A DNA stretch of 64,000 nucleotides from Octopus vulgaris (lineage: Eukaryota). The stretch is from assembly GCA_951406725.2 (NCBI GenBank), contig OX597814.1, positions 2,604,001 through 2,668,000 on the forward strand, given 5' to 3'. The position numbers and the translations under genes were made by a program. This document shows positions 9,689 to 33,062 of the stretch, piece after piece. Position 1 is the first letter of the stretch. Each line of letters begins with the position of its first letter. The notes beneath the pieces are model-generated. The model worked only from the letters and a program-made list of their open reading frames with translations, searched no databases and was not told the origin of the DNA.

Positions 9689-9751
9689 AGATAAAACTCT
9701 GAGTTTCAGATGCCGAAGTGGAAATCCACAACACCATCTCATCGGTTATCT
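9689..9751 (-). ncRNA. Hammerhead ribozyme motif in Penelope 3' pLTR (CCGAUGA core variant)
   Basis: AGATAA-CCGATGA-GATG..GTGGA tt TCCAC..CATC-T-GAAA-CTCAGAG-TT-TTATCT; perfect 6-bp stem I, long stem II. Confidence 0.75.
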
Positions 9752-9944
9752 GGCTATTTGAAAACGTTATGAAAAATACCGTTAAAAATGAAGGGAAATT
9801 ACTCTGTTATAACTCTGCTTTGCCTGCGTACTTATACATCGCTCGCATTTTTCGTCATAAAAATTATATAAAAATACATAAAAATATATAAAAATATATA
9901 AAAATATATAAAATCTTCTTGGGACATAACACAGAAAGCATGTT

Positions 9945-10880
9945 CTATCCGTTTTCTTTAGGGGACCAAAAACGTAACAGAAATTTAGTCACATGTGGGC
10001 ATGATCCGAAAAGCTCTGTCCTTGTATTTAGACATGTGGTAGGGTCTAAGCTGCTTTTCCAGATAAGCCATCTCTCCATGTCGCATAAACCGCACCTTCC
10101 GCTGCCGTTAGTATAGGGCTTACATCTGGCCAAAATCTTCCATTGTATGTTATAATCGACACCTTTATCTCTTAAAGACCAAATATGATTGGATAATTGT
10201 GTCGCTTTTCTTTTGTTCCAGTGCCTAAAGCTCAAAGTGTGGTTATTGAACCTGGCCTTGAAATTACCCTCTGTCAGGCCCACGTATTTCTTCGTCGAAA
10301 CGGTGTCTTTAGTGGTTATAGAGTTTACGGTAGCTTCATATATGATGGTCTTGGACATGCAAGCTCCATTTAGCGGGCACAATTCTTTATTCCTGCATGA
10401 ACAGCTGTTTTCTTCTTGTGTTTTTTGTATGTTATGATTGATTATGTTTTTAAAATTGGTAGTTGAACTAAAACTAATTTTTAAATTGTGTCTATTGAAG
10501 AGTTTCCTATAAGCATGGTTAACTGGAAAATGTCTATCTATCAGTGCTAGGAAATATTTACCTATATTGAAGGCCACCTCGGGTGAGTAAGGGGGCGTAA
10601 ACCAGATGACCTTCCTATTTCTATTATTCCTTTTCCTTATTGTTGGGCTGGTGATAGGTGTATATTTTATTTTTTCGCTAAAACCACTATCTTTTAAAGC
10701 TTTATTATAAACTGGGGCAACGCTATTGAAGATGTCCTCATTAGATGAGAGGCTAGAAATCCTCTTACTAATATTTTTAACTAAATTTTTGAATACTATA
10801 GGGGGATGGCATGAACCTACATTAATATAACTTAGTCTATCATTGGGCTTCCTATAAGGCTTATAAATATTATTATTAAG
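9945..10880 (-). pseudogene. Penelope-like RT thumb, Cys-rich linker and GIY-YIG endonuclease
   Basis: Frame is open from 10880: LNNNIYKPYRKPN..SCHPP..KVIWFTPPYS..CSCRNKELCPLNGAC..IIYEATV..KYVGLTEGNFKARFNNH..CGLCDMER..ELFGSCPH. Confidence 0.9.
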
Positions 10881-11133
10881 ATGGGTTCATATGATGGGGC
10901 AGGCATCTGTGATCTAATTGGACTCTTTCTCCAGGATCCCTTCGGTAAGACATTCCCTAACGTACATTTCGCCATCTACAAAGATGATGCCCTCGCCTTA
11001 ACAGCTAATACAAATGGACCAGCACAAGATCGTTTTAGGAAGGATATTATCCAGTTAATGAAACACTTCGGACTTAGTATAACTATAGACACTAACCTGA
11101 CGGTTGTCAATTTCTTAGACGTTTCCTTAGATC
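10881..11133 (+). pseudogene. Penelope-like reverse transcriptase core (inverted segment)
   Basis: MGSYDGAGICDLIGLFL..IYKDDALA..VVNFLDVSLD: catalytic YxDD and FLD motifs of PLE RT. Confidence 0.9.
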
Positions 11134-12224
11134 CTTTAATATTCAAATTTAATCTTTAAATGCAATATTTTAAGAAACAATTTTCTTGTTCTGTATTTTA
11201 GCAGAATATAAGTTGTAATGTCGGTGGGTTCACTTAAGAAATCACTGTTATTTTTCTGATGGTCCAGTTATGACCAGCGAGAAAATTTCATTGGTTTTTT
11301 TTCTGAGATGACATCTGCAACTCGTGTTTGAAGAGGTGTATGGTGTTGTTGTACAGAAATTTGGAGTTGAGGTTTCGAGTCTGGTCGTTTTTCGTGGAAC
11401 AATTGAATTTCTCTTTCTAGAGTGTTATTATAGGATATTTAGTGGTGGTTTGTATTTTTTTTTAATGAGCTGCCTTCCTTATTCAGTCGCAGTTAGGTTG
11501 AAGTGTTTCCTGTGCATTAATTCAGCGGGAAAATTTGATATTTCGGTTTTATGTCTGCGGGGCATTGATCTAAGTATTTGATTACGGAAAGTCTCCATTT
11601 TTTGACAAGTCAGGTTGTATATATATATTACCGTAATACTGACGAAGGAGGTCAGTATTATGGTAATGTTTTTATGCATCCTCTATTGATTGCACATCTT
11701 TGAATTTTTATCCACTCCGTCTGTCAAATACAAACAACTATTTCGTAGTCCCGAGACCCCAGAAACAGACGTAGGCCTTAAAATACCATGTCTTCCCCCC
11801 CTTAGTTTTCTGTATTCTCATTTTTTAAATATATATCTCAATGCTTATACGCGAGTGCTCATCTGCTGAACATTTTTCAGTGTTTGTTTCTTTTCTATAT
11901 GTCTGATTTATATGCGTTTATGTATATATGTATGTTTTATATATAAATCCTAAACGTGTTTTTCTGCATAACTCTCTCTCTCTTCCTGTATGTGTGTGTA
12001 TGTGTGTGTGTGTGTGTGTAATGACAATTATCAAAGAATGAAACTAGATCTTTTTAATACTTCATTTACAATCGTTTGATCATTAACCAGTAAATTGAAT
12101 CTTACGTAATGCAAGATGTCATATATGTGTGTTTGCGTGTGTTGTGTGTGTATGTGTGTGTATGTGTGTGTATGTGTGTGTATGTGTGTGTATACATATA
12201 TATATATATATATATAGAACATGC

Positions 12225-12381
12225 TTCTTCTTTCAGTTTCCATCTACCAAATCGACTTACAAGGCTTCGGTCGGCTTGGGACTACAGCAGAAGAAACTTG
12301 CCCAAAGTACCACGCCGTGGAACTGAACCTAGTACCATGAGCTGGAGAAGCGAGATTGTTACCACACAGCTACGCCTGCAT
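12225..12381 (-). mobile_element. SINE family A 5' half
   Basis: Matches head region of copies at 26095 and 61736. Confidence 0.8.
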
Positions 12382-12729
12382 CTATATATGTGTTTAATTA
12401 TATCATAATGTTTTTAACCCAATATTTAGATGCTGTTATTTATAACCTTATCTACTTCGAGTTCTTCAATTAAAAGGTGAATAATATATAACTACACACA
12501 CGCCCACACACCTCACACACGCAGTTACCATTACTATTATCATTGTCCTTATGATAATTATCACTTCCGTATTTTCGATCTATACCAACATAGCAAAACC
12601 ACAACATAGCAAAACTACAATGCAACCACCGCAGCTCTTGTCTCCTCAGGTGAAAACCTTTAAAGTATTTAATTAACTTAAATGACGTCGTTACCTTGTC
12701 ACAGAGCGTCCGCCCTACCTGTCATGATG

Positions 12730-30936: not shown

Positions 30937-31827
30937 TTTATGTCTTAGAAAAGACACGTCTATAATTGACAGACGCACATTCCAGGAAATAACAATATTA
31001 GGATTGTTAGAATTATGGAAGTAATGGCTTATAATTGTTACTAAATTCATCCACCATCCAGTTTACTAACAGCCAAACTTCTGCAGAAATAGTGACAAAT
31101 CACTTATGAGGATAAACATAACCGTGTTCCAAAAAATACCAGAAACTTTAAATTGTGTTGGATGACTCGCAAACATTTGTTAACCCTATACTTTTTTTTA
31201 TACATGTATCCCGAGATATATCTAATCCTTTGTAATGTAAAAAAAAAATATATGACTCTGAGATATATATCTCTGAAATCGCGGTTAACAATAAAGATAG
31301 TCAAATCTCGTTTTCTCACGCTCCATAAAAACGAGAATCACGAAACCCGTTATTTTTTTTCCTTTGCTGTTTAAACATGTGAAATACCGATTGAAATCTA
31401 AAGATTATATTTATATATTACTTTCATGAAACTTCTCCAGTTATCTTTAATAGAATCATCAAAGAGTTAATTCACAATACCAACGAAGAAATTTTATTAC
31501 ACTATCTCATTTTTGTAAACCAGAAATTTCCCTAATTTTGAACAAGACAAACTAATAAAGGCACAACCAAGACTGCGTGGTTAAAACGTTCACTCCACAG
31601 TTGCACGCTTCAGGTTTGAACCCACTATACGGCTACATTGCCAATGAATTGCATCACAATCATTATACATATATACATATATATATATATATATATATAT
31701 ATATATATATATGTGTATATGTATGTATATATATATATATGTGTGTGTGTGTGTGTGTGTGTGTATGTATGTATATATTAGCCACTAAACCTTTTTCTAT
31801 TTCCTGTCCCTGTTTATTTCTGTCTTC

Positions 31828-31864
31828 CTTTCTGTCGAAGAGCGTAGGCTCGAAACGTAAAAGA
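31828..31864 (+). ncRNA. Minimal hammerhead-like motif with CUGUNGA core (second copy 46734-46771 minus)
   Basis: CTTT-CTGTCGA-A-GAGC gtag GCTC-GAAA-CG-TA-AAAG. Confidence 0.5.
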
Positions 31865-31989
31865 CTTTCTCATTTCGTGAGCGTTAACCTAATACATTTG
31901 CTTATTGTTTACACACCCGTCTTCGTCTTTTGTTTTTGTAATTTCTCACTACGTACATATATATGTATCATTAGCATGCATTCAAGGTT

Positions 31990-32685
31990 GTTATAATGTA
32001 CATTGATACGTTTCATCCATTTACTTTGGCTTATCCAGAATGATTAAAGTTTTATGGAATAATTGACTCAGTCCGGTCTGTGAGATCTAGATTCTGCGTC
32101 AATTCCAGGTCTTACCACTTGTAGAAGATCTATGACTGAATGCCAATTTTCCAGAACCACTAAACAAAGAAGACTGACTCGGTGAAACACATGAGTTACT
32201 GGGAGCGGCTACAAGAACTGAAGCTGAACTCCCAGGAGAGAAGGCGAAAAAGGTATGCAGTGATATACATATGGAAGATCCTGGAAGGTCCAGCTCACAA
32301 CTTTTGAATTAAAAGCTAAACCAACCGCCGAACTGGATGGCACTGCATAATGCCAAAGATACCGTCTTCTTCATCTCAGATAAGGACCCAGTATTGCAAC
32401 AGCTTGGGTTTCAAGGGACCACAATTGGTTAATAGACTGCCAAGCGACTTGAGATATCTGTAAAGTGTTGATGTAGAAACGTTCAAATAGTGCCTGGATA
32501 TATTTCTGTCTGAAATCCCAGGTGAGCCCACAACACAGCAGGAAGGACAAGGAAGAGCAGCTTCGTCCAACTCGGTTCTCCACCAAAAACAGTACCGAAA
32601 GGAGAAACCAAAACATTGAAAAGTGATGCTCCAGCATAGCCCCAGCCTCTGGCTGAAGCCGGTAATAGAATAACAGAAAAAGAAT
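31990..32685 (+). pseudogene. CR1/L2-type LINE ORF2 C-terminus and 3' tail
   Basis: SYWERLQELKLNSQERRRKRYAVIYIWKILEG; YCNSLGFKGPQLVNRLP..LDIFLSEIPGEP..SNSVLHQ. Confidence 0.85.
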
Positions 32686-32994
32686 ATTTATACATAGATA
32701 CACACACACACACACACACACACACACACACACACACACACACATGTATAAATAAGTGACAACAAAAGAATGAGGCATCGATAATAGATAAATCACATAT
32801 ATGTTTGTGTGTGTATGTGTGTGTACATATACATGTTTGTGTGAGTGTGTACGTATATAGACGTTATGAACGCAGGAGGTTTTATGTCTGTGTATTGTGA
32901 GAATATGGTTACGGGTATTTTCTATCTTTTATATTTTCTTCTCCCTATTACAGTACTTCCCTTTTATTCAACGGTTTTCCATAGCGTCTATTGC

Positions 32995-33062
32995 CATTAA
33001 TAGCCGACGAGAATGCATCGTAGCTCTTCGGTCCGGCATTTGAAACACCGAATACTATTATG
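32995..33062 (+). ncRNA. Hammerhead motif (CCGACGA core variant) in solo Penelope pLTR-like fragment
   Basis: TAATAG-CCGACGA-GAATGC..GCATTT-GAAA-CACCGAA-TA-CTATTA; upstream sequence is homologous to reverse complement of 9755-9805. Confidence 0.7.

Follow-up and report, generated by a model that had tools for sequence, protein, structure and literature searches.

The question raised by this locus is whether hammerhead ribozymes with C instead of U at core position 4 (C4 and U4 hereafter) make up a family of their own. The locus is a 64,000-nt stretch of Octopus vulgaris DNA (assembly GCA_951406725.2, contig OX597814.1, positions 2,604,001 to 2,668,000 of the forward strand), referred to below as the window, in which three C4 motifs occur. 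An earlier sequence-only reading had linked these motifs to Penelope-like elements (PLEs) and had proposed C4 as a fixed trait of one family that joins a coding PLE to short non-coding derivatives. The link to PLEs was upheld. The reading favoured here, to which we assign a probability of about 0.62, is that the three motifs are type I hammerheads in the pseudo-long terminal repeats (pLTRs) of three coding PLE lineages (A for motif 1, B for motif 2 and C for motif 3), with cutting predicted in the dimer only, position 4 switched at least four times, and stems kept paired. Rather than marking one new family, C4 is likely a variant that these elements tolerate, and the data suggest that the fold was conserved while position 4 drifted between pyrimidines.

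Three C4 hammerhead motifs

C at core position 4 was found in all three motifs by direct reading and, independently, when the window was scanned for type I hammerheads; the distinct, paired stem I sequences described earlier were recovered in the same way. The motifs are as follows:

9689..9751, - strand: motif 1, type I hammerhead with C4, an extra U before G12 and palindromic stem III ACUCAGAGU; predicted cut between 9695 and 9694
29485..29522, - strand: motif 2, minimal type I hammerhead with C4, a stem II of 2 bp with a 4-nt loop, and A-G at 10.1:11.1; predicted cut after 29489
32998..33060, + strand: motif 3, C4 hammerhead, stem III palindrome disrupted by two post-insertion substitutions

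On the - strand, stem I of motif 1 is formed by AGATAA (9751-9746) and TTATCT (9694-9689), the core CCGATGA lies at 9745-9739 and GAAACTCAGAGTT at 9707-9695, and cleavage is predicted 3' of GUU. Motif 2 (- strand) combines stem I CTGT/ACAG and core CCGATGA with predicted cleavage 3' of GUA, and motif 3 (+ strand) combines stem I TAATAG/CTATTA and core CCGACGA with a predicted AUA site; these are the sites that had been proposed from the sequence alone. The two substitutions in stem III of motif 3 are relative to the family C form ACTC[C/T]GAGT, and the window copy of this motif is probably dead.

Compared with the strict type I core (C3 U4 G5 A6 N7 G8 A9 / G12 A13 A14 / A15.1-U16.1 H17), all three motifs have C4 and retain the remaining core positions, and this departure is a change already known as tolerated. 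Motif 1 has an additional pyrimidine between C11.1 and G12 (window 9708), alternatively readable as a stem II bulge, and in the predicted fold A9 pairs with this extra U. The additional pyrimidine is present in every family A subfamily (C in the old ones, U in the young ones) and may weigh more on activity than C4. Stem III of these hammerheads is predicted to form only in the dimer; the self-duplex of the motif 1 palindrome was computed at -7.4 kcal/mol. Focused Rfam scans of motifs 1 and 3 returned no hammerhead family, and in the whole-window Rfam scan, the only one covering motif 2, the best 150 of 435 matches were microRNA and small nucleolar RNA families driven by microsatellites.

Genome pattern searches were run on the 2.8-Gb assembly. 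The C4 core pattern gave 12,975 matches (2,397 in the reversed control) and the U4 core pattern gave 25,560 (1,737 in the control); by these totals C4 is abundant yet the minority state, and strict CUGANGA searches would miss roughly 10,000 C4 motifs here once the control is subtracted. Lineage-specific patterns gave 7,100 (A), 9,357 (B) and 153 (family C) matches, with 0 in the control. Since the C4 pattern exceeds its reversed control and the lineage patterns are absent from theirs, the motifs are not chance occurrences. Most of the listed U4 matches belong to one very abundant U4 family (stem II GGCUG/CAGCC), a decayed copy of which apparently lies near 38900-39000 of the window.

Coding elements behind the motifs

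Each motif was assigned to a PLE copy or to a remnant of one:

9548..10882, - strand: family A copy, 5'-truncated (3' part of the open reading frame (ORF), pLTR with hammerhead, tail), in a TA repeat; 97.4% identical over 1340 nt to the full-length copy L153
9945..10886, - strand: last 313 codons of the family A ORF (end of the reverse transcriptase (RT) region, Cys-rich linker, GIY-YIG-like endonuclease); 100% identical to the intact L153 ORF
10881..11151, + strand: inverted piece of the family A RT region, 97% identical over 271 nt to L153 in opposite orientation; a typical inverted 5' part of PLE insertions
29452..29525, - strand: 74-nt 3'-end stub of PLE lineage B (C4/G11.1 subfamily), in a TA repeat; the same subfamily has the ORF-bearing copies L281 and L291
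32794..33101, + strand: decayed 3'-end stub of about 300 nt from the old PLE family C, sister of A; 84.8% identical over 310 nt to L040

Family A is young (40 scored genomic copies are 98-100% identical) and its full-length copies encode an intact ORF of 708 amino acids. In L153, two hammerheads 2,591 nt apart flank this ORF, which starts 262 nt past the upstream core. The ORF contains what we take to be a YKDD motif and a C-terminal IYEA..YVG motif, with a Cys-rich linker between the RT and endonuclease regions. Among 7,999 scored candidates, 1,013 relatives of the family A protein were found, the listed ones at 41-52% identity, and GIY-YIG, RVT_1 and HTH_animal are each present in a share of its Atlas neighbours. 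Direct sequence searches with the PLE proteins against Pfam, NCBIfam and PDB gave no match. As read from sequence, family A has the layout of endonuclease-bearing PLEs (a single ORF with RT and C-terminal GIY-YIG) together with their other hallmarks (pLTR with hammerhead, tandem or inverted arrangement, one-sided tail, microsatellite target), inverted pairs and tails being seen among the copies, and its architecture fits an element of this type. Nematis, a clade distinguished by a Zn-finger-like linker between RT and endonuclease and by its place in the phylogeny, is a candidate clade name; the protein tree was built without named reference elements. Family A is covered by four contig-level runs that we guess to be RNA, in which no change at position 4 is listed; they were not used, since they cannot show transcription, strand or cut ends.

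Motifs 2 and 3 had been described as short non-coding derivatives. Judged from their relatives, they are instead 5'-truncated ends of separate coding PLE lineages, each with ORF-bearing copies. In family C, an endonuclease ORF lies upstream in L040 (64% amino acid identity to A), and several copies have upstream ORF pieces at 51-72% amino acid identity to A in their main segments. Long copies of lineage B (L250) encode a protein about 40% identical to that of A; matches to the B protein were found upstream in 3 of 27 motif copies examined, all from loci picked for a longer upstream part, and two of the three are of the C4/G11.1 type (L281, L291). Homology of the motif 3 flank to the Penelope 3' region, also proposed earlier, was confirmed: upstream of motif 3, the flank could be aligned to the corresponding one of motif 1, with 40 identities (z 4.8 against shuffles). 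Lineage B flanks (L250) do not align to A (z -0.9 and -1.4 against shuffles). In the protein tree, A and C form one clade (support 100), and the placement of A/C relative to B was not settled. With ORF-bearing copies and variable 5' ends, these lineages differ from a non-LTR retrozyme or other non-autonomous derivative, defined as a non-coding tandem unit of fixed length that is amplified in that form.

Most lineage B copies start 5-25 nt upstream of the core. A lineage B marker about 85 nt upstream is kept in 147 C4 and 1,341 U4 copies (about 3% and 30%, the two classes being about equally numerous); possible causes of this difference are age, divergence of the marker and a transcript 5' end close to stem I. 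C4 was considered as a cause of stub formation and rejected as inconsistent between the lineages, the C4 copies of A including long ones; since B and A differ in this respect, C4 has no consistent effect on copy length.

Position 4, stem pairing and the readings they allow

Position-4 states were counted with lineage patterns in which positions 3-5 were left free, and the first 100 matches listed for each were read by eye. The older stem II types of lineage A had U in 36, C in 2 and A in 2 of 40 listed matches; the younger types had C in 59 of 60 and U in 1 of 60. For lineage B, the listed matches had U in 44/44 for the A11.1 type, C in 21/21 for the G11.1 type, and 30 C, 4 U and 1 G of 35 for the T/C11.1 types. 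Among 100 listed family C matches, 77 had C, 21 U and 2 A, and 12 had a G5-to-A change; as changes are seen on both strands, U4 and G5-to-A in this family are read as CpG decay. CpG decay was rejected as the source of U4 in old A, where C4 is rare, no C4-A5 occurs among the 40 listed matches and other CpGs are largely kept.

A tree of A/C copies with position 4 masked placed family C apart from a ladder running from A1-A2-A3 (U4) to A4-A5 (C4), and divergence from the subfamily majority along A1-A5 was 14.8, 8.3, 8.1, 7.8 and 3.8%. In lineage B, divergence was 11.6% for T11.1 (C4), 3.4% for G11.1 (C4) and 1.6% for A11.1 (U4). The youngest and largest A subfamily is C4, and the youngest B subfamily is U4. 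C4 is not the fixed family trait that it had been taken for: U4 and C4 subfamilies both amplified within A and within B.

The outgroup consisted of 79 related PLE loci from marine metagenomes, some of them duplicates. With position 4 left free, 54 sense-strand hits were obtained (48 C3-U4, 3 U3-U4, 1 C3-C4 and 2 other), beside 2 antisense hits. Because 51 of the 54 have U4, this is likely the ancestral state. Under parsimony, at least four switches of position 4 are inferred, as two gains and two losses or as three gains and one loss. Four changes are also required if C4 was gained only once, in the common ancestor of A/C and old B, the same number as with separate gains, and, as the protein tree also leaves A/C and B unplaced, a deep A/C-B link is compatible with the data.

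In lineage B, C4 accompanies G11.1 and U4 accompanies A11.1, and these bases would be complementary in a short inactive alternative pairing; the association represents one event only, and C4/A11.1 intermediates occur (L086). C4 also occurs outside this genome: on a marine metagenome contig, a PLE ORF is preceded by a C4 hammerhead with good stems (L299:2168, + strand) and followed by a U4 one. U3:A8 core covariants were seen in related PLEs (L313:2103, L337:2400 and L338:1938).

Stem pairing was assessed in an alignment of 64 of the 72 A/C rows, after removal of three truncated or gapped and five near-identical young copies. Stems I and III were 92% paired. Pair 2.1:1.1 was AU in 35 and GC in 23 rows, pair 2.5:1.5 was GC in 27, AU in 18 and GU in 4, and one stem II pair, scored in 35 of 41 A rows, was UA in 22, CG in 6 and UG in 6; the GU intermediates sit in the expected subfamilies. 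The compensatory stem changes within A/C are real on the aligned copies. The compensatory changes proposed earlier stand to the extent that pairing was kept along A/C. The three stem I sequences of the window are not a within-family covariation set, given the low protein identity of B to A and the unalignable flanks. In lineage B, stem II has 2 bp and the 10.1:11.1 pair is mismatched; among the 43 outgroup loci with a U4 hit, 28 have a U-U mismatch at this position and, such mismatches being common in relatives, the lost pair is weak as proof of decay.

The following course of events would accord with these observations. In a tandem element, two hammerheads would pair through the palindrome ACUCAGAGU and so build stem III, and cleavage by the paired hammerheads 3' of GUU or GUA would then free an RNA one unit long (about 2.6 kb). 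C4 would likely slow cleavage; since insertion is probably not limited by the rate of cleavage, either pyrimidine may be tolerated in source elements. U-to-C changes would arise by copying error, and C-to-U changes would be favoured because C4-G5 is a CpG. Motifs 2 and 3 would be by-products of 5'-truncated reverse transcription.

Several points weigh against this reading. Self-cleavage of these hammerheads is a prediction. The monomer folds of motifs 1, 2 and 3 were not better than shuffles (z -1.58, 0.91 and 0.02), and the free dimer fold of motif 1 contained the palindrome duplex and stem II, without stem I and with A9 paired. The extra pyrimidine of family A and the 2-bp stem II of B could mean inactive ribozymes. 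The lineage patterns fixed A6, G8, A9 and most of GAAAC, so that invariance there is partly by construction. The A/C DNA tree (72 copies, 104 columns) has rough, unsettled bootstraps, and the order of the B subfamilies was taken from divergence, without a tree. When the covariation check proposed for the family was run on A/C, compensatory pairs were seen, and the number of pairs with two-sided change was not above shuffles (445/500 for the 64 rows, 75/500 for the stem II rows); the compensatory changes are few events in one lineage, and the excess in cell counts is inflated by relatedness. For these reasons the A/C covariation is supportive, not formal.

Cutting may have been lost altogether, the motif being kept as a folded RNA signal (for protein binding or for RT start or stop) or as pLTR promoter DNA while position 4, the 10.1:11.1 pair and the extra base before G12 drift. 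We regard this as unlikely. It would agree with the recent amplification of family A despite C4 and the extra pyrimidine, with the loss of the 10.1:11.1 pair in the two youngest B subfamilies and with an Anolis PLE for which the available text reports insertion in vitro without cleavage and no RNA ends at the cut site (PMC11167929). However, the majority sequences of all 7 A/C and 4 B subfamilies keep C3, G5 and U16.1, which the patterns did not force, mismatches at 10.1:11.1 are usual in the clade, as the outgroup U-U pairs indicate, and U4C is a known viable variant. Selection for C4, through a slower ribozyme that leaves more uncut template for reverse transcription and so confers an amplification advantage, is quite improbable. 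C4 did arise two or three times here against CpG pressure, is rare in relatives (1/54 hits) and is the state of the youngest, largest A subfamily; against this, the youngest B subfamily moved to U4 (all 44 listed matches), A spread through three U4 subfamilies, and long copies are fewer among the C4 copies of B but present among those of A. A broader conjecture along these lines, which we hold to be distinctly doubtful, would make position 4 a tuning switch: because template RNA is spared by a slower ribozyme, C4 would be gained again and again in active PLE lineages in spite of CpG pressure, and the U4/C4 sister subfamilies of this genome would be natural matched pairs for finding out what hammerheads do in PLEs.

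A single fixed-C4 family, in which a coding PLE mobilises motifs 2 and 3 as short non-coding derivatives, is very improbable. A and C are indeed sisters with homologous flanks, an estimated 97% or so of C4 B copies are without the sequence about 85 nt upstream of the core, and the stem III palindrome ACTCNGAGT is common to all three families. That palindrome, however, accompanies U4 in outgroup elements (L297-L300, L324, L331, L336, L344 and L373), ORFs of their own are found in C and B, both A and B include U4 subfamilies, the flanks of B cannot be aligned to A, and the 5' ends of the stubs vary. Separate coding lineages with a drifting position 4 are therefore preferred.

Other features of the window and known systems

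Further features were seen in the window:

325-375, - strand, and 372-422, + strand: two U4 hammerhead stubs from a different family, arranged head to head; their stem III is longer and could allow folding as a monomer, 10.1:11.1 is U-U, and L115 contains a related motif
24330-24373, + strand: possible decayed U4 hammerhead with stem I ACAGT/ACTGT, a GUC site and a weak stem II
33180-33450: imperfect inverted repeat of about 270 nt, resembling a miniature inverted-repeat transposable element and adjoining motif 3, with inward-pointing CCGATGA in both arms; not counted as a hammerhead, being without a convincing stem II
42456-43170, - strand, and 35055-35393, + strand: ORF fragments that we take to resemble the C-terminal portions of non-LTR retrotransposon proteins; the second had no Pfam match
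51253-51762, - strand: DDE_3 transposase fragment (Pfam E 4.4e-14)

For metazoan PLE hammerheads, a dimer model was proposed and low activity in vitro was reported (Cervera and De la Pena 2014, PMC4209133). As far as the available text of that study goes, the motifs described here share with them the type I topology, the pLTR location, the palindromic positions 15.2-16.2 and the predicted dimer action, as well as the occurrence of many consensus families per genome, mostly as truncated single copies or opposite-strand pairs. The core variant named there is U3-A8; C4 was not seen in the text consulted, and no CCGANGA was found in the text of its supplement, the figures lying outside a text search; the extra base described there lies between 9 and 10.1, whereas that of family A is 3' of stem II. 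According to the accessible parts of the report on the Anolis Poseidon PLE PAc (Frangieh et al. 2024, PMC11167929), its hammerhead needed protein, and catalytic mutants do not block insertion in vitro. PAc shares with the present elements a pLTR hammerhead upstream of internal RT start sites, a one-sided tail and AT-rich targets; the PAc ORF starts inside stem II, unlike the family A ORF, which starts well past the core.

In the available text of two sources (PMC7229834; bioRxiv 10.64898/2026.07.22.740005), the type I hammerheads of animal non-LTR retrozymes likewise derive from PLE pLTRs or are related to them. Retrozymes are tandem non-coding repeats, whereas motifs 2 and 3 each stand alone as the truncated end of a coding element. 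For deep-sea RNA virome hammerheads, the accessible text gives a CYGANGA descriptor that allows C or U and reports C/T degeneracy (PMC13481778); those motifs are viral-metagenomic, without the retroelement context or lineage tracing available for the PLEs of the window. In the literature searched (figures and most subscription papers lay outside its scope), subfamily-level C4 or repeated switching in PLE hammerheads was not found. Since this class of ribozyme, its occurrence in PLEs and the U4C change had all been described before, the advance is modest; the natural U4/C4 sister pairs and the intact young C4 element suit direct kinetic and retrotransposition tests. The closest precedent for the base change itself is a viroid hammerhead with the identical core substitution, U4C, for which considerably lower activity in vitro with infectivity kept is given in the consulted text (Ambros and Flores 1998, cited in Perreault et al. 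2011, PMC3088659). There, U4C is a sequence variant of an RNA replicon; here, it is the majority state of retroelement subfamilies with thousands of copies, repeatedly gained and lost.

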